Below, in pieces: positions 48,162 to 64,000 of a stretch of 64,000 nt of DNA. The number at the start of each line of letters is the position of its first letter. The first letter of the stretch is position 1. The DNA is taken from assembly GCA_965140585.1 (NCBI GenBank), contig OZ223270.1:512001-576000 (forward strand), read 5' to 3'. The notes beneath the pieces were generated by a model. That model did no database searches, was not told the origin of the DNA, and saw only the letters and a list, made by a program, of their open reading frames with translations. The DNA is from Spirochaetia bacterium. GTDB lineage: Bacteria > Spirochaetota > Spirochaetia > UBA9216. The position numbers and the translations under genes are program-made.

Positions 48162-48565
48162 TCAAGTTTGCCGGTGATTACCGGCATTGCCTTCTTTCCT
48201 GATAATTTCCCTGTAATAAAAGTTATCCCGAATCCTGCGGCTATTCCTATCAAACCGAAAAGCACCTTAATGCCTTCTGATGGATTGGGAAGTATCTTTC
48301 CTGAAAGGAAGAAAAACAGGAAAAACAGAAGCAGCGGAAATATCATGACCATAAAGGCTGAGCCTATTGTTTTCCCTGTAGGCAGCTCCACCTCTACACG
48401 TGAGCCTGGTTCAAGCTCAAAATTGCTTCTGTTGTGAGCTTCAAATGTCTTCTGGCCCGCTGTGCATAATCCGCTTGCTGCACAAGACTTACAGCCCTCG
48501 GTATCGCTGCACGCCAGCGTTATAATGTCATTTTTTATATCAATTACTGTCGCTTTCTCCAGCAT
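48158..48565 (-). CDS. rseC: SoxR-reducing system RseC family protein
   Basis: CKSC....C cluster plus two TM helices; start placed at MLEKA (48565). Confidence 0.8.
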   Translation of the reverse strand: MLEKATVIDIKNDIITLACSDTEGCKSCAASGLCTAGQKTFEAHNRSNFELEPGSRVEVELPTGKTIGSAFMVMIFPLLLFFLFFFLSGKILPNPSEGIKVLFGLIGIAAGFGITFITGKLSGKKAMPVITGKLD

Positions 48566-49361
48566 CCGGTACCTCCGCACATTCTTTTCTGATGCTTTTA
48601 ATCGAAACAGCTTTATGGCTGTCATCAAACTCTATAATTACACCCTGAAGTTCAGGTTTTTTCCACGCATCCCTCGACCTTTCCGGGACCTGAGTAAGAA
48701 ACTTCTGAAGTTCAATTTCCCGATCAAGCCCGCCGACAGATTCTATGCTACCGGTTCTTCCGGTGTCGCATATAGTTGCAGTTCCTCCTGGAAGGATCTG
48801 CTCATCCGCACTGAGTGCTTTGGTATGTGTTCCTGTGATTGCAGATATTTTTCCATCCATGTGATGAAACATGGTGTATTTTTCTGCTGTAGTGGCTGCA
48901 TGGAAGTCCATGATGACAATGTCAGCATCCTCTTTGAGCCTTGCCGCCAAATCAGGCGCATAACTGAAAGGGTTGCTAAGGTGAATCCGGTTGAATCCTG
49001 ACTGTCCAAGCATTGAAATCACACCGATTCTGGTCTCACCGGCATTGTAAATTCTCCAGCCGCGTCCGGGGTTTCCCGGAGGATAATTTGCAGGGCGGAG
49101 AATGTAAGGGGCTTTTATGATATGATCGACCATATCCTTTTTATAGTAACCCTTCTCTCCCAGGGTCTGACAGTCGATTCCCAGTTTCCGCATATATACA
49201 GAATGGTTTTTTCCAAGTCCGAAACCGCCGGTTACACCTTCGGTATTTGCAATTACGAAATCAATATTTTCCTCTTCCCTGATAACGGAAAGCAGTTTTT
49301 TGATGCAGAAGACGCCGGCTTTTCCGACGACTTCACCAATGCACAGAATGCGAGTACTCAT
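48540..49361 (-). CDS. ymdB: TIGR00282/YmdB metallophosphoesterase
   Basis: GEVVG, LRPANYP, DFHAATTAEK and GTHT motifs; several canonical metal ligands are substituted. Confidence 0.85.
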   Translation of the reverse strand: MSTRILCIGEVVGKAGVFCIKKLLSVIREEENIDFVIANTEGVTGGFGLGKNHSVYMRKLGIDCQTLGEKGYYKKDMVDHIIKAPYILRPANYPPGNPGRGWRIYNAGETRIGVISMLGQSGFNRIHLSNPFSYAPDLAARLKEDADIVIMDFHAATTAEKYTMFHHMDGKISAITGTHTKALSADEQILPGGTATICDTGRTGSIESVGGLDREIELQKFLTQVPERSRDAWKKPELQGVIIEFDDSHKAVSIKSIRKECAEVPDAGESDSN

Positions 49362-49406
49362 ACCTTTAAGATACAGAAAACCGGGATAAAAGGAAAGAGC
49401 GCGGAA

Positions 49407-51521
49407 CTAATCCGCGCAACCTTCTGAGCCTGTAACGAATTCACTGAATTTATCGTTCAGATCATTAATTATTGAATCGAGTTCCACTGTTATATTCTGA
49501 AGATCTTCCATTGCTTCAACAACACCTAAAGCCTGCTTGAATATATTATTCATTCCGCCTTCAACCTCAGTTGAGTTGTCTTTAATCAAAAGAAGCGCCT
49601 TGTTCGAAGTTTCAATGCCGCGGTGCATATCGGCAGAGCTTGTGCTGACCTCTCCGGTAACGTCATTGATTTGTTCGGTTGATTCCATGATCTGAGTTCC
49701 GCCGATAGTCAGTTCGGAGACGGCACTTTCAATCTCAAGAAAGGCATTGACTGTTGATTCAACTTCATTTGAAATAGAGTCAAAAGTTTTAAGGGTATGA
49801 CTCATGTTTTCAGAAGTATTTCTGATACCGTTGGTTATTTCTTTAATTAGTGAACTGATTGAACTTGACGACGCTCCTGCTGTTTCGGCTAGCTTCCTGA
49901 TTTCTTCAGCTACTACTGCGAAACCTCTTCCGGATTCACCGGCATGTGCAGCCTCGATTGCAGCATTCATTGAAAGCAGGTTAGTCTGGGAAGCTATGTT
50001 GTTGATGGTTTCAGTCATTTCCTGGATGTTTGTGATTTTTTCAACAACGGTTGAGAATACAGATGAAGTGTTGTCGATCTGGAGTTTTCCTTCCTCAGCA
50101 ATTTTTTTCAGAGATCCGGTTGAATCCTTCTTAACACGTGTGATGTTTCCGACGTTATTCAGCGACGCTATCATCTGGGTTATTGCCGCCGATGATTCCT
50201 CTACAAGAGAGCTCTGATTTGAGATAACCTTGTCAAATGACTCGGTATTTGTTGTAATCTGGGTCATTGCAGATGCGTTATCGTTGATTCTTGTGTTCAT
50301 CTCTGTAAGCCTGAACTCCACATTCCGGATGCTTTCATTTATATTCTGGATTGATGCTGCCGTCGATTCAGTTCGGGTGATGATCTTGTCCTTTATAACA
50401 TCAGTCTGAGCTACAGCATTCTGGATTTCAGATACAAGTTCACACTGTTTTTCCATGAAGATATTAAAGTTCCGGGCAACATCTCCAACCTCATCCTTAC
50501 TGCTGATATCAAGCCGTCTTGTAAGATCAGCCTTGCCCTCTGCAATATTTTTTAATGATGTATTTACTTTCCGCAGAGGTGATATGATTCTGTTTATCAG
50601 AAGCGCTGTAATGGCCAGCAGGATGATAAGGGCAATAACTGAAGTAACGATAAACGACGTAAGAATGGGTTTAAGCCGGTTTTTATACACCGAGGTTGGA
50701 ACCGCCGCGACAAGGAGTCCTGCCGCTGTTTTACGGAAAGAGGTGAATATTTCATTTTCCTTCCATATATAAGTAAAGCTTCCCTCTCCCATCTCAAATA
50801 TTTTCATTGCAAAATCTAGTGTTGTCATATCATAACCGATCAACTCAGTGTTAACATGGTGTGTGCAGAGCTTGGTTTCCGGGTCAAGGATGTAGGCGTA
50901 GCCGCCTTCAGTGTATTTATAATTAGAGATGATTTTCTGAAGATCCGAAGCCTCAAGTACTGTCTGCAGCTCTTCCGGTTTCACTCCTATCTGGATAAAA
51001 CCCTTACCGCCTTCACGGGCAACACCAATATACTGAAACAGGACATTATCGATAGCCCTTCTCTGGGGTTCCTGTGCTATTTCAAAGTCTGGATCCTGTA
51101 GCAGCTTCATGAAGGGGCGGCTTTGATCTCCGGAATTAAAATCGAACCCATAAAATCCCGGTGTTGTTCCGGCATAAAGTATTCCGTTTGAATCGGCAAC
51201 ATGTATTTCTTCGATTCCGACCTGTTCTGCCAGTTTCATCATGGCAGCGGTTCCGGGTGTTTCCGGAACGGCATCAATATAGCGGGCCACACTTCGGGCT
51301 ATTCTTATGAAATTCCGATCCATTGATTCTTTCATTATGTCTGTAATGTTAAGCATTATATTTTCCTGGAATTCAATATCGTCCAGGGTACCAAGTGTTG
51401 AAACCTCCATAACATTGTCTATCTCGTCGGATATGTTGGTATACCCGATAAAAGATATGATTGCTTCGGCCGCTAACAGGATTACGGCGATGGGCAAAAT
51501 GAGTTTGTAAATAATTTTCAC
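49407..51521 (-). CDS. Methyl-accepting chemotaxis protein (Cache sensor, HAMP)
   Basis: Two TM segments, HAMP and [35 protein letters not shown] signalling hairpin. Confidence 0.95.
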
Positions 51522-51541
51522 GCAATCTCCTCCTATATCTT

Positions 51542-51569
51542 ATATCGACTTCAGGCTAGTGCAGGTTTA
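51542..51569 (-). promoter_or_regulatory. Sigma28 (FliA/SigD)-type promoter of the MCP gene
   Basis: Minus strand TAAA-N16-GTCGATAT, then AGGAGG SD before the GTG start. Confidence 0.7.
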
Positions 51570-51604
51570 TTTTTTTTCAGCGTGAAATATACAACTGCCT
51601 TATA

Positions 51605-51633
51605 TTGACAATCGTGAAAGTGTAGAGTAACAT
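51605..51633 (+). promoter_or_regulatory. Sigma70 promoter of tRNA-Leu
   Basis: TTGACA-N17-TAACAT. Confidence 0.7.
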
Positions 51634-51645
51634 GTCATCCACAAT

Positions 51646-51729
51646 GCCCAGGTGGTGAAATTGGTAGACACGCTAGGTTCAGGGTCTAGTGTCCGTGCGG
51701 ACATGCTGGTTCGAGTCCAGTTCTGGGCA
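51646..51729 (+). tRNA. tRNA-Leu (anticodon CAG), CCA not encoded
   Basis: GCCCAGG/TCTGGGC acceptor stem, D loop with TGG, CTAGG-TTCAGGG-TCTAG anticodon arm, long variable arm, GGTTCGAGTCC T arm. Confidence 0.96.
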
Positions 51730-51759
51730 AATATAAACCCTTACGGGGGAAGAGATTAG

Positions 51760-51788
51760 GACGATTTCAGACGAAATCGTCTTTTTTT
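51760..51788 (+). terminator. Intrinsic terminator after tRNA-Leu
   Basis: GACGATTTC-AGAC-GAAATCGTC followed by T7. Confidence 0.8.
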
Positions 51789-51793
51789 ATTTA

Positions 51794-51829
51794 GGCGTCA
51801 TTTTGTCACTGACGCCAGTATTGACGCCA
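51794..51829. repeat. TGACGCC(A) repeats, integrase arm-type site candidates
   Basis: GGCGTCA 51794-51800 (inverted); TGACGCCA at 51810-51817 and 51822-51829 (12-bp period). Confidence 0.55.
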
Positions 51830-52006
51830 ATTGAAATGGTTTTAATGTAGAAAATTTTTAGAATTAAAATCTTTCACATAACCCTTCTTCTCTATGGTAT
51901 TATTTGTATTGAAAAAAAAGTGTTAGAAGGGATATTTGTGTGACCATTATCTTGTTGATAGCTATTTGCCATCCTTGACGCTCAAAGTTTTCACGGAGGC
52001 TCAAAT

Positions 52007-53992
52007 ATGCAAATTGAAAAAGTTGAAATTAAAAACTTTCGTTCTATCAGGAAAGAAGAGATCGGATTCGATCTTCTCACCACTTTCATTGGAAGAAACG
52101 GTGTTGGCAAATCGACAGTCCTGCATGCTATCGAGTTTTTTTATACAATCAATGCGAAAATAGACATCGAGGATTTTCACGCAAAAGATACAAGCCAACC
52201 TATTTCTGTAGCAATTACTTACTCAGGTCTTTCTAATGCTGAGGCGAAGGAGTTTGCTTCTTATATCGCTGATAGTCGACTTACAGTGAAAAAGATGGCG
52301 TCTATTGAGAACGGCGAGGTTTCGCAGAAGTACTATGGAACGAGTTTGCAGATACCGCAATTCGCTGATGTTCTTTCACACAGTAAAAAATCTGAACAGA
52401 CTACCGCATGGAAAGAGCTTGTTGATAGCGGACAATTAGAAGGCTTAACGGAGAAACCTCGAGCAGCCGACGCTATTCCTCCAATCATAGAGGCATATGA
52501 GGCAACACATCCTGAACTGCGACGTCCTGTAGAAAGGGAACAGCAGTTCTTTGGTCCTAGCAATGTGGGAGGAGGTAAGCTCGATAAGTATACGAAATTT
52601 GTGCTCGTCCCTGCGGTGCGAGAAGCCGCTGATGAATTGACAGATCGAAAAGGGGCTGTCACCAAGCTACTTGAGATGATTGTCTCGAGAAAAGTAAACT
52701 CACGTTCTGATATTATTAAATTCAAGAAAGAGTTCAATGAAAAATTGGAGACTCTTTTCTCTTCGGAGAATCTCTCCGAACTCCCTGAATTGGCAGAAGA
52801 TATCACAAAAACGTTGGAGCTCTATGCACCAGGTACCGTTCTTCACCTTGAGTGGGAAGATCCCTCACTGCCTGAAATCAAGATTCCAGGAACTCTTGCA
52901 TCTGTGGAGGAGGATGGATTTCAATCTGATATTTCCCGAAAAGGTCATGGACTTCAAAGATCGCTTATTCTGAGTTTGCTTCACCACCTCGCATTGTCGA
53001 CTCCTGTTTCAGAGTCCGTCGAGGAAGAAGATGGGGGTGAAGAGGATCCAGAGATTGTTGATGATAGAATGGATCTTATTTTAGCTATTGAGGAACCGGA
53101 ATTATACCAACATCCGTTGAGGAGCAGATTTCTCGTCTCCGTCCTCCGGGAACTGGCAAAACCTCAGGAAAACGATTCTGTTTCTGCTAACCAAATAATT
53201 TACACAAGTCATTCACCTTACTTTGTTGACCTCCGGCAGTTTGATAACCTTCGTGTAGTCCGAAAAATTGAGCAAGATATAGCTGAAGGAAGACCGGCCG
53301 AAACGAAAGTCCATTACTTTTCGACCTCTCAAGCAGCTGCCCGACTCCAAGAAATATGTCCTGATGTTAGAGAGAGCTTTACACCTGAGTCGTTCCTTGC
53401 CCATACAATGCCAGTGATGAACACGATTGTGAATGAGGGATTTTTCGCTGATGTGGTCCTCCTCGTCGAAGGGAACACCGAAGCCGCTCTTTTTTCCGCG
53501 CTTCAGGATGTACACTCAAGGAGTTGGTCACAACTTGGGATAGCAGTGGTTCCAGCATTTGGAAAAAACAATATTGATCGCCCTACTATTGTCTTTCGAG
53601 GTCTTGGTATTCCCACATACATCGTATTTGACGGTGACAAGTCCTGTGAAGGCAAAGATAGCGAGGCAAACACACGAGCAAAGAATATGCGTTACATGCG
53701 ACTTGTTGGTGTAGAACCTGAAGGTTTTCCAAGAACACGAATCGAAGAGTCCTGGGCGGTTCTGGAAGACAAGACAGAGACTACCCTAAAGGCAGATCTT
53801 GGAACAGATATCTATACATCATTAAGAGCGAGGGTTGCAGAACAGCTTGGGTATGATAAACCTTCAGCAGTTTTAAAGAATAGTGAAGGCACCTACCTCT
53901 TTGTTACATGGCTATATGCTGAAGGCCATCGGCTTTCGACATTCGAACAAATTATACAAAGGGTGGAAAGAATGCAGCCTATGGGCAACTAA
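52007..53992 (+). CDS. OLD-family ATP-dependent nuclease (ABC ATPase plus TOPRIM)
   Basis: IKNFRSI, Walker A GRNGVGKS, KGHGLQR signature, IEEPELYQHP, TSHSP; TOPRIM LVEGNTE and FDGD. Confidence 0.9.
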   Translation: MQIEKVEIKNFRSIRKEEIGFDLLTTFIGRNGVGKSTVLHAIEFFYTINAKIDIEDFHAKDTSQPISVAITYSGLSNAEAKEFASYIADSRLTVKKMASIENGEVSQKYYGTSLQIPQFADVLSHSKKSEQTTAWKELVDSGQLEGLTEKPRAADAIPPIIEAYEATHPELRRPVEREQQFFGPSNVGGGKLDKYTKFVLVPAVREAADELTDRKGAVTKLLEMIVSRKVNSRSDIIKFKKEFNEKLETLFSSENLSELPELAEDITKTLELYAPGTVLHLEWEDPSLPEIKIPGTLASVEEDGFQSDISRKGHGLQRSLILSLLHHLALSTPVSESVEEEDGGEEDPEIVDDRMDLILAIEEPELYQHPLRSRFLVSVLRELAKPQENDSVSANQIIYTSHSPYFVDLRQFDNLRVVRKIEQDIAEGRPAETKVHYFSTSQAAARLQEICPDVRESFTPESFLAHTMPVMNTIVNEGFFADVVLLVEGNTEAALFSALQDVHSRSWSQLGIAVVPAFGKNNIDRPTIVFRGLGIPTYIVFDGDKSCEGKDSEANTRAKNMRYMRLVGVEPEGFPRTRIEESWAVLEDKTETTLKADLGTDIYTSLRARVAEQLGYDKPSAVLKNSEGTYLFVTWLYAEGHRLSTFEQIIQRVERMQPMGN

Positions 53993-54103
53993 AGCATGTG
54001 AGTTATTTTGCCATTGCTTAATCAAAAGTCTACTTAAATAAAAATTCATGCTTATTGAAAGGGCAATATATTACACAATAATTTATGTGAGAGAGATGAT
54101 GAC

Positions 54104-54532
54104 ATGACAGAGGATGAGAGATGGAATTATTTAGTTAAACTTGATGAGGAATTGCTCATCGGGGGAGTAATACTTTCCGAATGGTGTACTTTTATTGTAA
54201 AGGAGGCTGATACAGCATTTGCAAAAGGAGCATTTTTAGCGTCATTGCTTACTGTTGTTTCTGGAATAGAGACTTATCTGCGCTCAGAATATGAAGCTAA
54301 CGATAAGTCATCGTTATATGAACTGATAGAAAATGCATCATTGGGTGAAGAGCTTATTCAAGAATTACATAGTCTACGAAAATATAGAAATAAATGGGTT
54401 CATGTTAATCACCCTTGGGAGGATGAAGAGATTATTCAAAATCCTGGAAAATATGAAAATGAAATCGAATTTAGAGCTATAGGCGCAATGAAAACCTTAA
54501 GAAAGGTATTATATGAAAATTCATGGATTTAA
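54104..54532 (+). CDS. Small HEPN-like protein (putative RNase)
   Basis: Helical protein with upstream Glu (SGIETYL) and RxxxxH motif (RNKWVH). Confidence 0.6.
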   Translation: MTEDERWNYLVKLDEELLIGGVILSEWCTFIVKEADTAFAKGAFLASLLTVVSGIETYLRSEYEANDKSSLYELIENASLGEELIQELHSLRKYRNKWVHVNHPWEDEEIIQNPGKYENEIEFRAIGAMKTLRKVLYENSWI

Positions 54533-54719
54533 ATGCAGCATAACAACTATCCATAACAGAAAATATTCGATACGTCCGTTTACATCTGAATGATTCTAAT
54601 ACAAATTGAAATGTGATTGTTCTGTTTGAATGGAGTAATTTTCCTATAACCAGATAATGGTGAGATAGAAAATTATTCTACCAATTCTACAATAGTTGTT
54701 ATAGACTAATACTGTAATA

Positions 54720-56840
54720 ATGAAACCAACAATTTTAAAATATGAAGAAGCCAAACCATATCTTGATGAAATAATTACAAATGCTGATAACAATCGTGTC
54801 TCTTTTGGGTTCATCTGTAAAAGTGCATATCCAGAAAGTATGGAGAAGGGGTTTTTATGGGTCTTAACATTGGATGAAGTTTATGTTGGGCATTTATTAT
54901 TTGGTGGCAAATATCCAAGTTTAAAAATCTTTCAAATATATATTAATCCACGTTACCATAAAAAAGGATATGGAAAATTCCTGATTGAAAAATTTATTAC
55001 CTATTCAAAAAATTTACATGTTCAAATTATATCAGTTAAAGTTGCTGCTGAGCTTCCTGCAAATACATTTTGGATTAACTGTGGTTTTCTATTTTTTAAT
55101 CAAGAGGAGGGGCATGGAAATAGGCGCTTAGTGAACAAATATCTTTACGAAGTAGATAAGAACCAACTTTTTGAGAATGCAGGTGCAGAAGAAATAATTC
55201 CTCTTTCCAAATTGAAAAATGATAAATCTCCAATCTCAACAGTTCCAATATATGCGATTGACTTAAACGTTTTCTTTGATTATTTGAAAGATAGGGAGAA
55301 TTGTGTTTACATTACAAATCTAATTTCAATGGCCATGTCTGGTCATGTGAGGATAGTTATAACAGCTGAGTTTATTGATGAATTAAAGAGGAATTCAATT
55401 GGCGAAGATCCTGTACTACGTTTTGCAGAACAGTTTAAGCGCTTACCGGAAGTAGACGTTAATCAGCATCAAGAATTATATAATAATATCTATAATTTGA
55501 TATTTCCAGAAAAAAGGGATAAGACAAAGGTAAATGACAAATCTGATGTGAGCCATATAGTGGCATCTATTGTTAATGAGATCGATGGCTTTATAACTTC
55601 TGAGAAAAAGATTCTCAGGCAGTCAGAACATATTTTTAAAAATTACAAGTTACAAATATTGTCACCTTATGAATTGTATTCTGAGGATGGTGAAATTAAT
55701 TCTCATGCTATAGATTTAGATAGTGAAGAAATCAATTTAGAAATATTACAAAAACCTTTTAATAATAATTCTAATCCTTTCATAGAACTATTATCACCTC
55801 GTGCATTAACAGAAATAAAGCAGTCTGATTATGAATATATACATAGCGTTAATGTGAGTGAAAATTGTATGGGGGTAATTGGAATTCAAAGAGTTCAGCA
55901 AAGGGTTTGTTTAATCAATGCTTTATTATTACTTGATGACAGTGCACCTAATATTTATTTGCTTATCGATAAATGTATGGATTTCATTTACGAATACGCA
56001 GCAAAGAAAGAGTATTGTCAATTATGTATTAAAGTGAAAAAGGATTCAGATGTTATGATTCAAACCCTTCAAGATCAATTATTCTTACGAAGTAATACTA
56101 ATCATGAGTTCTTTTCTGAGTATGTCCGATTATTTGTAAACAAACAGATATTTCGGCAAGATTGGGAGCATCTTAATTCAATCTTGGAGTATTCTTTGAA
56201 TTTAAAAGGACCCAATCATTTCCCATCTTATGATGAAATGATAAACAGTAGAATCGTTTTCTCAAAATCTAACATGAAGAAATATGGAATTAATTTGTTC
56301 GATTTTGAAACCTTCTTTTATCCCACAATTTTAATGTGCTCGAAGAGACCTGGAGTGATTATTCCAATTCACAAGAATTTTATTGAAGCATTTTTCCCGA
56401 AGCATATCAGTCAAGATGATTTATTTCCACATCATAGTGCATCTGTTTCTTGTGAAAAAGTATACTATAGGGCGCCTAAAAAGAGTACACATTTAGAAAA
56501 AGGTAAACTTGCTTTCTTTTACGAATCTGGGTTTAAAGGTGGCGCAAAAAAGATAATTGGATATGGCAGAATAACATCATCCCAGATTGTAGATATAGAT
56601 GTTTTAAATAATAAATTTTATCGACAAGGAGTTCTATCCGAAATAAGTATAGAGGGACTTGCTACAAATGGAAAAATCCAAGTGATTACATTTAGCAATT
56701 TTCGGATATTTAAACATCCTGTTAGTTATAATTTATTAGAAAAAGAAAAAATAGTTACAGGTGCAAGATTAGTGACGGCGCAGGGAATAGATTTTAAGGA
56801 TGTAAATAAAATCATGAAATACGGAAATAATGGAGCTTAA
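54720..56840 (+). CDS. GNAT-PIN-(degenerate GNAT)-EVE/ASCH-like (PUA fold) multidomain protein
   Basis: QIYINPRYHKKGYG...ANTFW..CGF (GNAT); AIDLNVFFD...EFIDEL...DKSDVSH...FITSE (PIN); IIPIH...KVYY...LAFFYES...IIGYGRI (PUA-like). Confidence 0.75.
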   Translation: MKPTILKYEEAKPYLDEIITNADNNRVSFGFICKSAYPESMEKGFLWVLTLDEVYVGHLLFGGKYPSLKIFQIYINPRYHKKGYGKFLIEKFITYSKNLHVQIISVKVAAELPANTFWINCGFLFFNQEEGHGNRRLVNKYLYEVDKNQLFENAGAEEIIPLSKLKNDKSPISTVPIYAIDLNVFFDYLKDRENCVYITNLISMAMSGHVRIVITAEFIDELKRNSIGEDPVLRFAEQFKRLPEVDVNQHQELYNNIYNLIFPEKRDKTKVNDKSDVSHIVASIVNEIDGFITSEKKILRQSEHIFKNYKLQILSPYELYSEDGEINSHAIDLDSEEINLEILQKPFNNNSNPFIELLSPRALTEIKQSDYEYIHSVNVSENCMGVIGIQRVQQRVCLINALLLLDDSAPNIYLLIDKCMDFIYEYAAKKEYCQLCIKVKKDSDVMIQTLQDQLFLRSNTNHEFFSEYVRLFVNKQIFRQDWEHLNSILEYSLNLKGPNHFPSYDEMINSRIVFSKSNMKKYGINLFDFETFFYPTILMCSKRPGVIIPIHKNFIEAFFPKHISQDDLFPHHSASVSCEKVYYRAPKKSTHLEKGKLAFFYESGFKGGAKKIIGYGRITSSQIVDIDVLNNKFYRQGVLSEISIEGLATNGKIQVITFSNFRIFKHPVSYNLLEKEKIVTGARLVTAQGIDFKDVNKIMKYGNNGA

Positions 56841-56842
56841 CT

Positions 56843-57265
56843 ATGGAAATCATGTTGTCTATCAAACCAAAATATATTCAAAAGATTCTTGCTGGAGAGA
56901 AAACTGTTGAGATTCGTTGCAGGAAAATGAATTTGCCAGTAAATACAAAGATTTGGTTATACTCTTCTTCTCCTGAAAAATCTATTGTAGGAAGGGCATC
57001 TGTTCTTGATTATAAATATGAAAAAAGAGAAGAAATCTGGTCAAATCATTTTGTTGAAACAGCAATTGATTCGGATGAGTATAGTCAGTATACAAAAAAC
57101 AATGAGAAAGTAAGTGCAATTTTTTTAGGAAATGTACAACCTTTAAAAGAAAAAGTTCCACTTGATGTTGTAAGAACTGAAATAAAGGGATTCCAGCCAC
57201 CACAATTTTATAAAATCATAGAAAGCAATTCCATATTAAATTCAGATTCTGAGTTCATTTCATAG
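56843..57265 (+). CDS. ASCH domain protein
   Basis: MLSIKPKY...ILAGEKTVEIR...LYSSSPEKSIVG...PPQ; starts 2 nt after the previous stop. Confidence 0.88.
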   Translation: MEIMLSIKPKYIQKILAGEKTVEIRCRKMNLPVNTKIWLYSSSPEKSIVGRASVLDYKYEKREEIWSNHFVETAIDSDEYSQYTKNNEKVSAIFLGNVQPLKEKVPLDVVRTEIKGFQPPQFYKIIESNSILNSDSEFIS

Positions 57266-57401
57266 TTCCTTCCATTGGGGAAATTTTTAGTGTTGCTTCT
57301 GCAATAGTGACACAAACTTGTCCCAACGATAGAACACACATTCTGAATGTGGAAAAGTTGCTACGTTAAAACCCTTCACACACATTCCTGTCTCTATGGC
57401 G

Positions 57402-58514
57402 TGCTATGGCTTTTTCAACTTTCAAGCACTCGAGCGGTAATATGAATGATGGAGGCCTCCTAAAACAGAGTCTTTTTTAATTGCCCCAATACCTAGAGGG
57501 TGATTCCCTACAGGAATTCCACCAACACCTTGATGGGGACGTAGGTGATTATAATAGGAAACATATGATTTTATAATATTCCGAACCTGCTTCTCTGAAA
57601 ACAGAAGAAAATGATCCAGAGCTTCTCGTCGAATTGAACCGTTCAATCTTTCGACATATGCATTCATATTCGGAGCATAAGGACAGATATTCACTCCTGT
57701 AATTCCAAACCAACTATAATCGATAGATGTAAACTGTGCAGCATTGTCATGAATCAATGTCTTCTGTCCCTGAATATCCTCGGAAAACAGCTCAATCCGT
57801 TGTTTTACAAACTCCCGACATGGATTTTCAGTTAAATCTGACCGGATTATCTTTCTGGATTTCAGTTCAAGGATTATTAGCAGAAATAATCTTTTGCCGA
57901 ATAGTGTGTCTATGGTCAAAAAGTCCATTGCAAACAAGGAATTCCAGTGGCTTTTAAGAAACTTTTTCCATGATCCTACCGGATGAATCTTACCCTGCTT
58001 TCTATATACTTGAATTATTCTATTCACTGTAGTCGGATTCAAATCAATACTGAGCTTTTTCAATTCATCAGCTATACGATGGCAGCCCCAGAGGCTATTG
58101 TCCTGTTTTATCTGAAAAATGAGTTCTTTGATTTCTTTTGATACTAGCTTTCTACCCGGTTTCACATGCTTGTAGGTCCAGAAGTTTTTAATGAATCTAC
58201 GCTGCCAGTCTAGAAGAGTTGAGGGTTTGACAAGAGTTAGGTGGTTTGAAGCTCTTCTGGATAGTCAGAAAATTATGGTTAGAAACAGCCGATCCTTCAT
58301 TCTCATGTTTGAATGCAGCTTTTGGCGATTTATCTGCCGTCTATAAACTTGATTCTCTTTTTTCAATGCCATCAAGGTGAAGATTAAGTCCTTGCGGTTG
58401 GAAAACAGGATTTTGAGCAAAGAATGGAGTAGAGTAGTCAGGAATTCAAACATACTTTATTATCGGCAGATGTAAAATGGAAAAATTTCCACATTAGTCG
58501 AAAAAGCCATAGCA
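57402..58514 (-). mobile_element. IS-like element copy 1 (rve integrase-core DDE transposase, IS481-like)
   Basis: Terminal IRs TGCTATGGCTTTTTCAACT / AGTCGAAAAAGCCATAGCA (18/19 match) enclosing the transposase. Confidence 0.8.
57422..58453 (-). pseudogene. Transposase with one in-frame TGA at codon 63
   Basis: Same 1032-nt length as copy 2; the frame continues past TGA 58265-58267 (LSRRASNHLTLVKPSTLLDWQRR). Confidence 0.85.
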
Positions 58515-58591
58515 TGACCCAGGCGTGGAGGGGTGCAGGAATTATCCAGACAGGCCAGAGAAGAAGCTATGACTCTGGCCAGCCTGACCGA

Positions 58592-59335
58592 TTAGGAATA
58601 GTCCCAGCGGAAAAATTTTAATGATAAGAATACTCCCAGAATCATCATTACCAGTAATAGGGCTATCTGAATGGGGAAGGCTCTGAAGGGCTGCCCCTGA
58701 CTAATTCCATTCAGCAATACAATCCCCTGCCGCAAAGGGAGCAGTGAAGCGGCTTTCTGCAGCCAGTCCGGGAACACAGAATATGGAATGGTGGTGCCGG
58801 AGAAGAGCAGCATAGGAAAGTAGAGTATGCTACAGAGAACCCCGGCCTGTTTACTGTCCTTCGCCAAACTGGCGACAGTCATTCCCAAAGCGAAAATGGA
58901 AGCCAATACAAGCATCCAGGCTAAGGCAATAGACATAAAAGCACCCACAGGTTTGATCCCAAACAATAGAATTGCTATTAATGCAGTTAAAAGAGATGAA
59001 ATAAGGGCTACCAGGAATTGTACCACCAGTTGAACCGATAGCAATAACCAGGGGGATGCGGGCGTAACCTGCAGCCTCTTAAGCACTTTCTTTTCCCGGT
59101 AGTCCGACAGAACTATAGGCAGCCCCATCAGTCCAACGGCGCATATTCCAATGGAAATTAATGCCCCAAAGGTCATTTCCAGCATGCTGCTAAATCCTTC
59201 AGGTGGATTATTGCGGTAAATCCATCCGATCAAAAGAGTTATTACAACAGGCATTATCAGGACAAATAGCATAACATCAGGGCTTCTTAAACTTAATTTC
59301 AATTCAATAGAACTCAATTTAAAGAATCGTTTCAC
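58592..59335 (-). CDS. ABC-2 type exporter permease
   Basis: Six TM segments; YREKKVLKRL..TP and FSG...P...FP.WLQ motifs. Confidence 0.88.
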   Translation of the reverse strand: MKRFFKLSSIELKLSLRSPDVMLFVLIMPVVITLLIGWIYRNNPPEGFSSMLEMTFGALISIGICAVGLMGLPIVLSDYREKKVLKRLQVTPASPWLLLSVQLVVQFLVALISSLLTALIAILLFGIKPVGAFMSIALAWMLVLASIFALGMTVASLAKDSKQAGVLCSILYFPMLLFSGTTIPYSVFPDWLQKAASLLPLRQGIVLLNGISQGQPFRAFPIQIALLLVMMILGVFLSLKFFRWDYS

Positions 59336-60045
59336 GCCACTCCTCCTAAGAGATTCACATAGGATTCTTCCAGATTCTTCCCTTTACCCAAACAGGTAAG
59401 TTCTTCTATGCTCCCCTCCGCTAGAATTTCTCCTTTATTAATTAAAACGGCTCTTCCACAAAGAGTTTCTACTTCATCCATATAATGGGAAGTTAGAATC
59501 ACGGTGGTACCAGATTTATTAAGTTGGATAATACGCTTCCAGACATCCCTACGGGCCAGGGGATCAAGCCCTGTGGTAAGTTCATCAAGGAAAAGAAGCT
59601 CTGGTCGATGCATACATGCCAGTAATATGGATAAACGCTGCCTCTCCCCTCCTGAGCAAGACACTACAGGAGTAAGAACTTTATCCATTAGTCCGAATTC
59701 ATCCAGTAAATTCCTCCAATCAGGCTCTTCTTTGTAGAGACTGGAGATTGAATAGCACAATTCCCCCACTCGAATTCCGGCCTGATAGCTGGAATCCTGG
59801 AACTGAACGCCAACTTTCGAGAACAATGTTTTCCGGTCTGCAACAGGGTCCAGCCCCAGTATTTCCACCGATCCATGATCTTTTTTCCTTACTCCGAGAG
59901 CACATTCCAGAGCTGTACTTTTTCCGGCCCCGTTTGGTCCCAGAATTCCGAAAATCTCTCCCTTATTTACTTCAAGAGAAATTCCTTTTATCGCCTGAAG
60001 GTTCCCATAGCTTTTTTGAAGATTCTTTATTTTAAAAAATGACAT
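59332..60045 (-). CDS. ABC exporter ATP-binding protein (DrrA-like)
   Basis: GPNGAGKST, SGGERQR, LFLDELTTGLDP and TSHYMDE motifs. Confidence 0.92.
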   Translation of the reverse strand: MSFFKIKNLQKSYGNLQAIKGISLEVNKGEIFGILGPNGAGKSTALECALGVRKKDHGSVEILGLDPVADRKTLFSKVGVQFQDSSYQAGIRVGELCYSISSLYKEEPDWRNLLDEFGLMDKVLTPVVSCSGGERQRLSILLACMHRPELLFLDELTTGLDPLARRDVWKRIIQLNKSGTTVILTSHYMDEVETLCGRAVLINKGEILAEGSIEELTCLGKGKNLEESYVNLLGGVA

Positions 60046-60046
60046 T

Positions 60047-60871
60047 TCAAACCTCCTTTTTGATCACAGGGAGCTGGATCTCGGTCAACCATTCACGGTC
60101 CGATTCTTTATTCCAGATTCCGTCAATATAAGACTCCCTGGGATGATCAACTGGTTCGTATCCTTCCGCATCAATCCAGCTGAACAGGCGGTTATAGCTT
60201 TCACGCAAAGTGGAATAGGGGCCCATATGCATCAGGCAGGCGGCCTGCGCCACTTTCTTAATGGTCTTGAATTTCACCCTGTCCGATTCCTCGCAGGGGG
60301 CAATTACGGCCTCACAGATTTCGACATCTATATCCCTTTCCTTGTACTCACCATCGTGATAAATGGTAAAGCAGTAGAAGGGATCCCGGCAGACTGCTCC
60401 AACCGATTCCATATATTCCCCCATTTTGGGAACCACATCAAAATAGCTGTTATAATCGGGAACCCTGGTCCGCATGGAAGCCACCAGTACTTCCGGTAAA
60501 GATTTCAACAGGACTTCGTTTTTCATTTCTTTTTCTCCTTCCAATCGAACCAGATACTCCTGAACACGGTCTAAACGCTGTTTTTCCTGTTCAATGCTCT
60601 GTAGAATCTCTCCTTCCCTTTTTTTAAGAATCTGTTGGATTCTAGATTGACCTTTCATCAGGTCCTTAATTTCCGGTAGGGAGAAGCCTAGTTCTTTCAA
60701 TATTAAAATGCGGCAGATCAGTGGCAATTGCGAGGTACTGTAGTACCGGTAACCGGTCCAGTCATCTACCCTGGCAGGTAGAAGAAGGCCGATTTTTTCA
60801 TAATGCCTCAGTGTTTTTGGAGTTATCCGGTTGATTTTAGAAAATTCTCCGATGGAATACATCACATCCAT
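60047..60871 (-). CDS. MerR-family regulator with GyrI-like ligand-binding domain (BmrR-like)
   Basis: YSIGEFS...TLRHYEKIGLL..TGYRYY HTH; C-terminal HMGPY...RESY...WLTEIQLP; start placed after AGGAG. Confidence 0.9.
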   Translation of the reverse strand: MDVMYSIGEFSKINRITPKTLRHYEKIGLLLPARVDDWTGYRYYSTSQLPLICRILILKELGFSLPEIKDLMKGQSRIQQILKKREGEILQSIEQEKQRLDRVQEYLVRLEGEKEMKNEVLLKSLPEVLVASMRTRVPDYNSYFDVVPKMGEYMESVGAVCRDPFYCFTIYHDGEYKERDIDVEICEAVIAPCEESDRVKFKTIKKVAQAACLMHMGPYSTLRESYNRLFSWIDAEGYEPVDHPRESYIDGIWNKESDREWLTEIQLPVIKKEV

Positions 60872-60900
60872 TAAACTTCTCCTGCGCATGAGATATTTTC

Positions 60901-60931
60901 ATTATAGAGTTTGTCCCAAGGGAAGAGTCAA
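60901..60931 (-). promoter_or_regulatory. MerR-type promoter with 19-bp spacer
   Basis: Minus strand TTGACT-N19-TATAAT with TCCC-TT-GGGA dyad in the spacer. Confidence 0.8.
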
Positions 60932-61035
60932 GAAAGAAATGAGAATTTATTTTCGGCCATTAGCCAACAGGCTGTAATGACTGTGGTAGCGTTTACGCAT
61001 TCCCATCCGGTTAAGCCATCCCAGAGGCTTGCTCG

Positions 61036-62148
61036 TGCTATGGCTTTTTACACTTTCAGGCACTCGAACGGTAATAATGGTGATGCAAGCCGCCTAAAAT
61101 CTGCTTTTTCTTAATATTTCCGAAGCAAAAATCGCTATCTCCATCGGGAATTCTATCAATTCCCTGATGGGGACGATAATGATTATAATATTCTATATAC
61201 TCCTGAATAATCTTCCGAACTTGTTTCTCAGAAAACAGCAGGAAATGGTCCAGTGATTCACGGCGGATGCTGCCGATGGTTCGTTCAATATAAGCATTCA
61301 TATTTGGTGCAGCATAAGCGGTGTTTACCCCGTTGATTCCATAATCATTGTAATCGATGGTTGTGAATTGAGGTGTATTATCATAGATTAGGGTTTTCGT
61401 ATCTGGAAATGTTTCTGTGAATAGCTGAATCCGTTGTTTGACGAATTCTCTTGTTGGTTGCTCAGTAAAATCAAAACGTACAATTCTTCTTGTTTTCAGT
61501 TCCAGAAAGAGCAGAAGATATAAACGTTTCCCAAGTAATGTGTCGATAGTCATGAAATCCATGCTGAAAAGAGAATCCCAATGTGATTTCAGAAATCTCT
61601 TCCAGCTGCCTATAGGCTGAATTTTACCTTGTTTTCTAAATGTCTGGATGATTCTGTTTACTGTCGTTGGATTAAGATCCATTCCTAATTTCTTGAGCTC
61701 GTCTGCAATTCGATGACAGCCCCAGAGCGGGTTATTGTGCTTCATTTCAAGTATTAGCTTTTTAATCTTGCTTGAAACAGGTTTTCTTCCTGGTGTTTTA
61801 TGTTTATAAATCCAGAAATTTTTGATAAATCTTCGTTGCCAGTCGAGAAGGGTAGCGGGCTTGATGATTGTGAGGTGTCTGACGGCTCGTTTTGATATAG
61901 CAGATATAATTGTGAATAGAAAACGGTCGCTTCTTCTCATTGAATCCTGTTTTAGCTTCTGATTGAGTTGGCGCTTATAAATCTGGTTTTCTTTCTTAAG
62001 AATCATCAGAGTTATGATTAAATCTTTCCGGTTGGAGAATAATATTTTAAACAGGGATGTGAGTAGATAGAGAATGAAGTTGAACATGGATGATTATATC
62101 AGGTTTTAATGTAGAAGAATTTCCACATTGCTTAAAAAAGCCACAGGA
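61036..62148 (-). mobile_element. IS-like element copy 2
   Basis: TGCTATGGCTTTTT at 61036 and degenerate AAAAAGCCACAGGA ending at 62148; same 1113-bp span as copy 1. Confidence 0.75.
61056..62087 (-). CDS. rve integrase-core DDE transposase (intact)
   Basis: WG..RI..EL HTH; MDF, YDN and ER catalytic positions; YN..RPHQG and LGGLHH.Y. Confidence 0.88.
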   Translation of the reverse strand: MFNFILYLLTSLFKILFSNRKDLIITLMILKKENQIYKRQLNQKLKQDSMRRSDRFLFTIISAISKRAVRHLTIIKPATLLDWQRRFIKNFWIYKHKTPGRKPVSSKIKKLILEMKHNNPLWGCHRIADELKKLGMDLNPTTVNRIIQTFRKQGKIQPIGSWKRFLKSHWDSLFSMDFMTIDTLLGKRLYLLLFLELKTRRIVRFDFTEQPTREFVKQRIQLFTETFPDTKTLIYDNTPQFTTIDYNDYGINGVNTAYAAPNMNAYIERTIGSIRRESLDHFLLFSEKQVRKIIQEYIEYYNHYRPHQGIDRIPDGDSDFCFGNIKKKQILGGLHHHYYRSSA

Positions 62149-62397
62149 CGCGCAGCATTTGATCAGTACTATCTACTCATTGATGATGATAGAGCCTTAA
62201 AGATGGTCAATTATTTTCGTTACGGCACTGTTGATGAAACCGAGATTTGGTTAATGAAATATGGATTATCAATAGAAGATGCAGAACAAATCAAAGAATA
62301 TATTTCAGAAATAAGTGCAGATGAGATAATTTTTAATGATGGTTTTTCTAATCTCGATGATGATAGATTAAAAGCTGTTGTAGAGAGGTATGTTTAA
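62149..62397 (+). pseudogene. 3' remnant of a gene truncated at the IS end (possibly a helicase C-terminus)
   Basis: Open frame running out of the IS terminus; YGT...IWLMKYGLS pattern. Confidence 0.5.
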
Positions 62398-62696
62398 TTG
62401 TTAAATAGAAAAACATCCACATTCATTTTATACGGATAAATCTGCTGCACCAACCATTAGCCCTGACGGGGCGAGCTAATGTAGATTAAGTATGAGTCTA
62501 TATAATTGATATTATGCTATATGAAAGCTTAGGTTTTATGTCGTACATATAGATACTTTTTTCTAATCAAAATATAGAAAAATTTTGTCATTTGAGTTCA
62601 TAGAGAAAAAACTACACTTCAAGGAAGGGCTCCCAAATTTAATTGTGGAAATATTTCTCAATTCAATTTCAAAGACATAGAGTGTAGTTATACAAA

Positions 62697-63194
62697 TTAT
62701 TTAATATTGACTTTATATTTTTTTGTATCACTATCAAGTAATAAAAATTGTTCTTCGATATTGTATTCTATTAGCTTTATACCATTTGAAATTTCATTGA
62801 TGCTAATTGGAAAGATGAAATCAAACTGGTTGTCCTTCAGCATGTACTGTTGTTTTCCATTGGTGGAGATAGTTCCCAGATATGAAAAACGGGAAGTATC
62901 GTAGATTGAGACTGCCTGCTGTGGTACGATTTCTTCGATTTCAGCTGGTTGTAAATTGACTGCCTTATAAAACATCTTCTCCAAATAACTTGTAGAGATC
63001 TCCTTTTTGGGGGATATCTCTGTTGTTTTGGGTTCCATTTTGGAAGATATTAATTGAGAGGTAGTGACATTTTCAGTTTTTGTTGAATTGATAAATACCT
63101 CTGATGGAAAGATAAACAGAAATACAAGATATACAGCTGCCAACACAATCGCAGCGATTAGTATTGTTTTTATTATAATTGTAAACCTTTTCAT
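62697..63194 (-). CDS. Hypothetical bitopic membrane protein (secretion/pilus accessory-like)
   Basis: N-terminal TM helix, YLGTI beta domain; ATGA overlap with the GspK-like gene. Confidence 0.6.
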   Translation of the reverse strand: MKRFTIIIKTILIAAIVLAAVYLVFLFIFPSEVFINSTKTENVTTSQLISSKMEPKTTEISPKKEISTSYLEKMFYKAVNLQPAEIEEIVPQQAVSIYDTSRFSYLGTISTNGKQQYMLKDNQFDFIFPISINEISNGIKLIEYNIEEQFLLLDSDTKKYKVNIK

Positions 63195-64000
63195 TCAAGT
63201 TCCTCTTCATAACGGATATTGCTGATTATCTGTATGGTTCTTTGGCCCGAATTGCTTTCAGAACTGCTGCCCCCTGGGCGGTATGAATGCTTTATGTCGG
63301 GAATTTCTGCGATGATGATTTCGTGCCTCTGATTATTAGTTCTTATTGTTATCTTCCAGAACCAGGTTTTTGTTCCAAGATAATCGAAGATGATATGGGG
63401 TTCATCCTTAACTGAAAAGATGGATTCAAGCTCACTTGTGTCTATTTCGCTTCCGGTTCTTTGCTGGATAATCGTGTTATAGGTCCTATCAGGATAAGGC
63501 AAAGGATTATCACCAAAATCATAGGATAGGATTTCTTTAAGAAGCTCCTCAGGGATGAAATGAATATTCATAACAGGTATTGCACAAATGAATGGATATA
63601 GTTCGCTTATCGATGTCCCGAGTATGCTTTCAATCTCGTTGTTTGGGATGACGGTATCGTTAATCCTTGCCGTTTGTATTTTCCGTCTGAAGGATTCAGC
63701 CTCGAAGTCCCTGCCGGTTCTTGCCTCAAAAAGCCCGGTAAGCGCAAGCTCGTCTGCAATGTTGATGTTCATGTAGCTGTGGATGGTGATGAAGTTTTCA
63801 AGTCCTTCGTCGGAGAAGTATTCCTCCGACAGTATTTGCGGATTTGATATCAGACCGAGATCATGTCGTAACTGTTCAATCTCAGCCATCGTATGGCTGT
63901 CTTTAAAGATAAGTTTACCGATGCCGGTTTTATCCGTAAGCTCATCACGAAAGAAGTTTGGATTGAACCTGCTTGAACTATCGTTAAGCTCAATTGAAAG
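63191..64000 (-). CDS. GspK-like (type II secretion minor pseudopilin K) protein, 5'-truncated by window edge
   Basis: Frame open to 64000: IELNDSSSRFNPN, then MNINIADE and MNIHFIPEELL, resembling the GspK D..g.iNlN / iNvNtA motifs. Confidence 0.6.
   Translation of the reverse strand, partial: LSIELNDSSSRFNPNFFRDELTDKTGIGKLIFKDSHTMAEIEQLRHDLGLISNPQILSEEYFSDEGLENFITIHSYMNINIADELALTGLFEARTGRDFEAESFRRKIQTARINDTVIPNNEIESILGTSISELYPFICAIPVMNIHFIPEELLKEILSYDFGDNPLPYPDRTYNTIIQQRTGSEIDTSELESIFSVKDEPHIIFDYLGTKTWFWKITIRTNNQRHEIIIAEIPDIKHSYRPGGSSSESNSGQRTIQIISNIRYEEELE

Follow-up and report, generated by a model that had tools for sequence, protein, structure and literature searches.

A four-domain GNAT-PIN-(GNAT-like)-PUA-like protein and its ZmASCH-type partner in a tRNA-linked island of a Spirochaetia bacterium: a candidate RNA-directed conflict module

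A two-gene cassette in the genome of a Spirochaetia bacterium (lineage UBA9216, GenBank assembly GCA_965140585.1) is assigned by its profile matches to a catalogued type of module, the (PIN)-GNAT-PUA/EVE + ASCH operons, which PADLOC lists as candidate PDC-M11. We analysed it in a window of 64,000 nucleotides (contig OZ223270.1, positions 512,001 to 576,000, forward strand), and coordinates are those of the window. The large gene encodes a protein with four predicted domains, and is followed directly by a gene for a small ASCH protein. The kind of module is not new, and the class itself was known. What the present analysis adds is the four-domain subfamily, the kinship of the partner with ZmASCH of Zymomonas mobilis, the homology between the fused PUA-like domain and the free partner, a linkage with DISARM-type genes and the island context. 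With confidence a little better than even, we read the cassette as a PDC-M11 member of a four-domain subfamily that has gained a GNAT, and as an RNA-directed defence or toxin module. This confidence refers mostly to its identity and to an RNA-directed role in conflict.

Family membership and domain architecture

A preliminary description, made from the letters alone, had proposed a check against PADLOC, and both proteins do match its models. The large protein matches PDC-M11A (PDLC04421, E 8.9e-16; PDLC04420, E 1.1e-14), the best stretch covering residues 511-684 alone of models that are 376 and 486 positions long. The ASCH partner matches PDC-M11B (PDLC04424, E 9.9e-26, residues 1-131; PDLC04425, E 1.2e-25). 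The preliminary description had also noted that comparative genomics had already met such architectures, and published accounts fit. Bell, Wolf and Koonin (2020), who give credit to Iyer et al. (2013), state that (PIN)-GNAT-EVE operons almost always encode an ASCH protein, that they are linked to type I restriction-modification (RM), and that none of the modules had been characterised. Matelska et al. (2017) assign the PIN domains of such operons to PIN_15/PIN_17, within the VapC group, and both papers file the operons as potential toxin-antitoxin (TA) systems.

The window cassette shares with these operons a PIN domain, a GNAT-fold domain lacking motif A and a PUA-like/EVE domain in one protein, an ASCH gene directly downstream, a sporadic distribution across phyla, and a frequent location near restriction-type systems. 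It differs in having a further, motif-A-bearing GNAT, which precedes the PIN domain by about 170 residues. No mention of a four-domain form with an extra N-terminal GNAT was found in the accessible parts of Bell et al. (2020) or Matelska et al. (2017). The architecture is not a chance one: homologues reach E-values from 0 to 1e-36 and 82 of 190 pattern-matched contig stretches encode relatives.

The lengths of the two open reading frames (ORFs) and their spacing agree with what had been described at the outset (Table 1). The junction reads TAA-ct-ATG, with a 2-nt gap between the stop of the large gene and the ASCH start on the same strand. The genome carries a single copy. The pair had also been called AT-rich, and its GC content is indeed 30.8% against 42.3% for the genome, within the lowest 1.4% among 9657 genome windows of the same size. 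Across positions 54000-57499 the GC fraction is 0.29-0.35, compared with 0.41-0.46 in the flanks of the window.

Table 1. Features of the cassette and its island, in window coordinates
Feature	Coordinates	Strand	Evidence or remark
tRNA-Leu(CAG)	51645-51730		island abuts its 3' end
Variable island at the 3' end of tRNA-Leu(CAG), 10.8 kb	51731..62501		comparison with same-genus genome G001
OLD-family nuclease, AAA_15 + OLD-like TOPRIM	52007-53992	+	PADLOC Old, E 1.6e-58; also AriA and GajA models
142-aa gene, same low-GC block as the cassette	54104-54532	+	ESM Atlas: DUF4145-like clusters, 0.95-0.98
Large gene, 706 aa, GNAT-PIN-(GNAT-like)-PUA-like	54720..56840	+	ATG-started ORF; PADLOC PDC-M11A match
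Predicted N-terminal GNAT domain, residues 1-145, motif A H80-K-K-G83-Y-G85	54720..55154	+	Pfam, Foldseek and PDB profile matches
Predicted PIN domain, residues 175-315, D181, E217, D276, T293-x-E295	55242..55664	+	PIN_3/PIN in family segments; conserved tetrad
Predicted central GNAT-fold domain, residues 325-495, without motif A	55692..56204	+	VIA-align to GNAT chains
Predicted C-terminal PUA-like domain, residues 507-706	56238..56837	+	ZmASCH-type match; hhalign to ASCH-partner profile
Shine-Dalgarno-like GGAG, inside the end of the large gene	56832..56835	+	7 nt before the ASCH start, read from the sequence
ASCH partner gene, 140 aa, ZmASCH-type	56843..57265	+	ATG-started ORF; Pfam ASCH; PADLOC PDC-M11B match
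IS481/IS3-like copy 1, split transposase of 247 + 62 aa	57402-58514	-	19-nt inverted ends 57402-57420 and 58496-58514
IS481/IS3-like copy 2, diverged from copy 1	about 61030-62140	-	

All four domain calls of the preliminary description (a GNAT with motif A, a PIN domain with acidic residues, a degenerate GNAT and a PUA-like domain) are borne out. The N-terminal GNAT (residues 31-129) matches Pfam Acetyltransf_10 (E 4.6e-9) and Acetyltransf_1 (E 5.5e-8). An AlphaFold2 model of the whole protein, built with 14 homologues in the alignment (mean predicted local distance difference test score, pLDDT, 79.8), has as its best Foldseek matches in the PDB the N-alpha-acetyltransferases Ard1, RimI and NatC. 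Compared with PDB sequences, the GNAT profile gives 39 matches at E <= 1e-3, led by Ard1 (E 2e-7), streptothricin acetyltransferase and RimI (E 8e-7). Active-site residues were counted over 112 representatives at least 690 aa long. The motif A pattern [RQH]xxGx[GAS] is found in 84 of them, with Arg at position 80 in 101, Gly at position 83 in 90 and Ala or Gly at position 85 in 108.

The predicted PIN domain is confirmed by PIN_3 and PIN matches, by invariant residues and by an acidic tetrad. In the whole-protein Pfam scan, PIN_3 covers residues 180-293 at E 8.4e-4, which is under the curated Pfam cut-off; on the isolated segment it reaches E 5.5e-5. Among 48 family PIN segments, 43 match PIN_3 and 22 match PIN. 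Residues D181, N183, D187, E217, S275, D276, H279 and T293 are invariant in the 48 sequences, and the tetrad D181/E217/D276/[DE]295 is kept in all 112 representatives, with E295 in the window copy. A search of PDB sequences with the profile of this segment gave no chain at E <= 1.

For the second half of the protein, residues 325-706 were modelled with a 48-sequence alignment (pLDDT 87.4; predicted TM score, pTM, 0.86) and compared with about 48,000 PDB representatives. Residues 325-475 (model positions 1-150) take a GNAT fold, with a VIA-align Z of 11.3 and a root-mean-square deviation (rmsd) of 3.2-3.8 to 1nsl and 1y9k. No Pfam family matches this central domain, which lacks the glycine-rich motif A and has an acidic VDE-type stretch at the place where the motif would be. 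It is probably not an acetyl-CoA binder. Matelska et al. (2017) describe a PIN-associated GNAT-like domain without motif A as probably inactive. ESM Atlas comparisons of the central domain scored 0.81-0.83, under the useful range. A recent duplication of the N-terminal GNAT as the origin of this domain was considered and rejected (hhalign probability 0.9%, no detectable similarity).

The extra N-terminal GNAT is apparently a working one, and apparently the sole acetyl-CoA-competent domain of the two. Any acetyltransferase capacity of the protein would lie there, since motif A is found in this domain and is missing from the central one.

The C-terminal domain is predicted to be PUA-like, and its model lies nearer to ASCH than to EVE, although it is named EVE in the literature. 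Its best structural match is ZmASCH (5guq_A; residues 542-704/706, model positions 218-380; Z 15.1, rmsd 2.5, 139 of 143 positions aligned), compared with Z 11.3 for EVE-type chains and THYN1 and Z 10.0 for the McrB N-terminal domain. Pfam EVE (PF01878) was not reached at its cut-off (residues 585-684, E 0.071, 13.5 bits against 23). The residues best kept among the 112 representatives are Y601 (111), R543 and Q565 (110 each) and R617 (108). A BFVD fold search with the C-terminal half returned weak, generic GNAT and ASCH matches alone (best E 2.3e-5).

The profile of the ASCH partner aligns to this fused domain over 110 columns (hhalign 96.3%, E 1.7e-9), an alignment that places the partner's conserved Tyr at the near-invariant Y601. 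The fused domain is homologous to the partner, and the system therefore has a fused and a free PUA-like module that are paralogues.

The coupled ASCH gene was likewise correctly described: the partner matches Pfam ASCH (E 3.1e-6) and no other Pfam domain. The motif G-x-K-x-x-E-x-R (G18, K20, E23, R25) is invariant in 48 of 48 partners, as are S6, W38, Y40, P44, W66, Y83, F117 and P120. Against the PDB, the partner-family profile finds the ZmASCH entries 5Y6C, 5GUS, 5GUQ and 5Y6B over about 132 residues (E 1.8e-36 to 2.6e-35); the next match has E 0.034. Residue counterparts read off the alignments are Y40/Tyr47, K46/Lys53, R25/Arg32, Y83/Tyr90 and Q121/Gln127 (partner/ZmASCH), with Phe at the position of Ser128. 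The partner is thus placed by its profile as a close relative of ZmASCH.

ZmASCH was reported by Kim et al. (2017) to bind single-stranded DNA and RNA and to cleave single-stranded RNA alone, in a Mg-dependent manner in vitro; the changes Y47F, K53E and S128A lower binding or cleavage. The partner shares with it a full-length sequence match and the counterparts of Tyr47 and Lys53, and the fused domain, too, has ZmASCH as its best structural match. The two differ at Ser128, and the work on ZmASCH concerned the protein by itself; the accessible text of Kim et al. (2017) mentions no PIN-GNAT neighbour.

Relatives, neighbourhoods and the island

A word-indexed search restricted to proteins of similar length found 18 relatives in addition to the query. 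A HMMER search of 1.84 billion representatives with the C-terminal half (48-sequence profile) gave 1707 at E <= 1e-3, of which 413 reach E <= 1e-30. Among the best 150 of these 1707, 115 also match the N-terminal GNAT and PIN profiles, 22 have the PIN match without the GNAT one, and 13 have neither. In most of those 35 the profile match begins at the first residues of the protein, as happens with truncated gene calls. With these 115 of the best 150 representatives, the four-domain form is a sizeable, coherent clade and no isolated fusion event. The large protein had no match in the phage collection, and a metagenome scan for close relatives returned one irrelevant match of 41 residues alone.

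From the 82 stretches that encode relatives we kept 80 loci. They span Spirochaetia, Acidobacteriota, Alphaproteobacteria, Gammaproteobacteria, Latescibacterota, Desulfosarcina, Verrucomicrobiia and one Saccharimonadales metagenome-assembled genome. Wherever the match extends to the C-terminus, which is the case in 62 loci, an ASCH homologue starts 2-15 nt past the projected end of the large gene; 9 of the 18 other loci run off the contig. Pairwise distances of the large protein and the partner are correlated (r 0.84, a value reached in 0 of 2000 permutations), which shows that the two are inherited jointly but not that they are in contact.

When 1036 crude ORFs from the 80 loci were clustered all against all, no third gene recurred; the largest other clusters comprise 8 loci. 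The 142-aa gene upstream of the cassette was ruled out as a third component, with 0 tblastn matches in the 80 related loci. Searches of Pfam, PADLOC and NCBIfam gave it no ribbon-helix-helix (RHH) or helix-turn-helix (HTH) match. The DUF4145-like product contains an R-x4-H stretch of HEPN type.

Two relatives are worth describing. A 231-kb plasmid of Caulobacter rhizosphaerae (NZ_CP048816.1, locus L090) encodes a four-domain homologue (22% identity, 99% coverage), annotated just as “GNAT family N-acetyltransferase” and found beside genes for an S-adenosylmethionine-dependent methyltransferase and a nucleoside triphosphate pyrophosphohydrolase. In L074:7947-8693, the N-terminal GNAT runs straight into the C-terminal half of the ASCH partner within one ORF of 248 aa (hhalign 99%), and this looks like an in-frame deletion remnant of a whole cassette.

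Neighbours were surveyed with Pfam in the 52 loci with an intact full-length gene, taking the two nearest ORFs of at least 120 aa on each side (191 proteins) and grouping them by family names. Defence-type nearest neighbours were found in 16 of the 52 loci, a figure that describes these loci and does not measure enrichment. The families seen are Shedu SduA_C, Eco57I/MmeI-type methyltransferases with large helicases, HsdR, DarT, BrxL, a Schlafen-type helicase and HipA, as well as AAA_15/AAA_21 ATPases, AAA_21 with DUF4276, HNH_5, and SIR2 with STALD. Mobile-element genes alone are the neighbours in 4 of the 52.

Some recurrent neighbours are of DISARM type. In L003 the recurrent upstream helicase matches DrmD (E 3.5e-301) and the methyltransferase matches DrmMI (E 0) in PADLOC. 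The blastp clusters of the DrmD-type helicase and the DrmMI-type methyltransferase comprise 8 loci each, the helicase being found also in L002. The large adenine methyltransferase of the DrmMI-matching cluster shares a locus with the pair in 8 of the 80 (L003, L005, L006, L007, L008, L009, L014 and L060). It ends directly upstream on the same strand in all seven besides L009, where it lies downstream. L006 also has a DrmA match downstream of the pair (E 1.6e-276). A literature search found no paper joining DISARM with ASCH or (PIN)-GNAT-EVE operons. Other defence-type genes stand near the pair at L008:11067-11714, L005:16507-17739 and L007:16680-17984, with matches to DarT (E 1.5e-58), HEC-01A (E 2.9e-156) and PDC-M28B (E 8.4e-134).

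In the window, the cassette is located in an island at a tRNA-Leu gene, together with an OLD nuclease, the DUF4145-like gene, two insertion sequence (IS) copies and an ABC/MerR block. The large protein is present in 1 of 41 related genomes and was not found in the same-genus genome, the sole other hit being a generic GNAT (E 5e-4). That same-genus genome, G001, aligns to window positions 48500-51729 (93%) and 62502-64000 (96%), with a different insert of 10.6 kb between them. The insert (L089, G001:C4:480700-491600) starts with a tyrosine integrase and holds a three-gene block of 410, 177 and 641 aa, whose last gene matches Lamassu LmuB (E 2.2e-53). Since G001 has the same flanks around a different insert, positions 51731-62501 are a swappable tRNA-linked slot and a hotspot for defence cargo, with genes of this type predicted in both genomes. 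Horizontal acquisition brought the cassette into this tRNA-Leu-linked variable island.

The OLD nuclease gene lies directly after tRNA-Leu and has a GC content of 44%, against 31% for the cassette. This difference suggests that it was probably acquired separately. Between the two IS copies, at 58592-60889, stand genes for an ABC-2 transporter, an ABC ATPase and a MerR/GyrI-like regulator, an arrangement that resembles a composite transposon. Near the island ends, at 51838-51858 and 62102-62122, there is a direct repeat of 21 nt.

Proposed action and rival explanations

In the reading that we favour, a motif-A GNAT was gained ahead of a PIN / degenerate-GNAT / PUA-like core, and the large protein would be an RNA-directed effector. 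Its PUA-like domain, with the presumably dead GNAT-fold domain as a scaffold, would dock on an RNA that is structured or carries modifications, tRNA being the most plausible candidate. The docked RNA would then be cut by the PIN domain, whose site is strictly conserved, and the N-terminal GNAT would acetylate that RNA or an aminoacyl group on it. The co-translated ASCH protein would bind the same class of ligand and either restrain the effector or co-operate with it. The system might be set off in the course of a phage infection or when the cassette is lost. Substrate, trigger and partner role are what we infer here, on the basis of an observed identity and context. We lean to RNA because the partner resembles ZmASCH and keeps the counterparts of Tyr47 and Lys53, because the PIN domains of these operons are filed in the VapC group, and because the fused domain is homologous to the partner.

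PIN and GNAT domains both serve as translation-blocking toxins. With type II toxins of the PIN (VapC-type) and GNAT kinds the window proteins share the full acidic tetrad, the acetyl-CoA motif and a small co-transcribed partner gene. The differences are in arrangement: the window GNAT is the first of four fused domains and does not stand alone, the PIN domain is internal to the fusion, and there is neither an RHH/HTH antitoxin nor a VapB-type antitoxin gene upstream. The partner is predicted to be of the nucleic-acid-binding ASCH type, unlike the partners of type II toxins, and it lacks the HTH domain of the alphaproteobacterial HTH-ASCH forms.

A candidate defence or TA module had been proposed in the preliminary description, and as a candidate it stands: the PADLOC match, the published predictions, the tRNA-Leu island with its OLD nuclease and the 16 of 52 defence-type loci favour it. 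Several results weigh against the RNA-directed conflict role. In 32 of the 52 loci the nearest neighbours are housekeeping or unannotated genes alone, and with no background rate we make no claim of enrichment. The N-terminal GNAT is as similar to protein N-alpha-acetyltransferases (Ard1, RimI) as to anything directed at RNA, and none of its 39 PDB matches at E <= 1e-3 is named as a tRNA-acetylating GNAT toxin. Motif A is imperfect in 28 of the 112 representatives, and the window copy itself has His at position 80, where 101 of the 112 have Arg. Kim et al. (2017) could not locate a metal site for the nuclease activity of ZmASCH. Our literature searches turned up no experimental study of any family member, PDC-M11 appearing as an annotation label alone. 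Finally, the recurrent linkage with adenine methyltransferases, together with the type I RM linkage of Bell et al. (2020), fits a reader of DNA modification equally well.

Such a reader is the core of one rival, which we consider unlikely. Here the PUA-like domains would read a modified DNA base (e.g. N6-methyladenine or a phage hypermodification), and the GNAT would acetylate a DNA base or a DNA-bound protein, as an add-on to restriction-like systems; Bell et al. (2020) attribute the idea of DNA-base acetylation to Iyer et al. (2013). It would account for the DrmMI-type methyltransferase in 8 of the 80 loci, with DrmA as well in L006, for HsdR adjoining the pair in L022, and for the HTH-ASCH and HsdS-ASCH fusions and the type I RM linkage noted by Bell et al. 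(2020). THYN1 bound to 5-methylcytosine DNA (Z 11.3) and the McrB N-terminal domain (Z 10.0) are among the structural neighbours of the C-terminal domain. However, PIN domains are RNases or structure-specific nucleases (Matelska et al. 2017), and ZmASCH, the sole studied close relative of the partner, bound both nucleic acids and cleaved single-stranded RNA alone. No methyltransferase stands beside the pair in 44 of the 52 census loci, nor is there one in the island of the window. Decidedly unlikely in our view is a plain addiction module, in which a PIN/GNAT toxin held by direct binding of an ASCH antitoxin would stabilise the island and have no dedicated anti-phage role. The filing of the operons as potential TA systems (Matelska et al. 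2017; Bell et al. 2020), the tight coupling and joint inheritance of the genes, the mobile, IS-flanked island and the homologue on the Caulobacter plasmid all suit this account. What does not suit it is the small gene itself, which lies downstream and encodes ASCH alone with no DNA-binding domain, unlike classical type II antitoxins, and which keeps conserved nucleic-acid-binding residues that would be needless for a mere plug.

The preliminary description had gone further and suggested a writer, reader and nuclease acting on acetylated RNA or DNA, with the ASCH protein as an eraser or antitoxin. The eraser part finds no support. In its specific form, the GNAT would write N4-acetylcytidine on RNA or DNA and the ASCH protein would erase it as YqfB does, which we regard as very improbable. 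YqfB is an ASCH-fold N4-acetylcytidine amidohydrolase of E. coli (EcoSal review), and it resembles the partner in its ASCH/PUA-like fold class and in being a small stand-alone protein; a motif-A GNAT and an ASCH gene are indeed co-inherited here. However, the partner carries the classical G-x-K-x-x-E-x-R motif, invariant in all 48 family partners, and its profile finds ZmASCH at E 2e-36, while YqfB (1TE7) is absent from its 11 PDB matches at E <= 1 in a sequence search alone. No acetylcytidine-hydrolase family is among the NCBIfam matches of the partner at E <= 1 either. A tRNA cytidine acetyltransferase chain (2zpa, E 6.8e-4) does occur among the weak PDB matches of the GNAT profile, but it is no better than dozens of unrelated GNATs. 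A housekeeping enzyme of RNA modification or processing in the host is hardly credible: enzymes that modify tRNA and rRNA commonly have PUA-like domains (Bell et al. 2020), yet the cassette occurs in 1 of 41 related genomes, was not found in that of the same genus, lies in the lowest 1.4% of GC windows, is spread patchily over many phyla, and sits in the swappable tRNA-linked slot.

The RNA-directed reading can be extended to a switch in which the free partner acts as a decoy reader, an idea that we hold to be improbable. Being paralogues, the free partner and the fused PUA-like domain would compete for the same modified RNA or DNA ligand or jointly clamp it, and the partner would hold the effector off as long as the host ligand is present. 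Once infection had removed or altered this ligand, or brought in large amounts of a foreign one, the fused domain would engage it. PIN cleavage and GNAT acetylation of tRNA would then be two hits on translation by a single polypeptide, and the extra GNAT would be a later gain that restored an activity lost by the ancestral core.

Implications for the family

Among the defence candidates that have no biochemistry yet, this family ranks with the more widespread. In the subfamily described here, the acetyl-CoA motif lies in the added N-terminal GNAT and not in the central domain that gives the family its name, which shifts where the chemistry should be sought. The kinship with ZmASCH provides a structural and an assay template for the partner, and argues against the eraser idea. 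The insertion of the pair in DISARM-type loci in some lineages suggests a possible role as a back-up effector of modification-based immunity. A dual action on tRNA, as RNase and as acetylase, would, if true, be a new effector logic.

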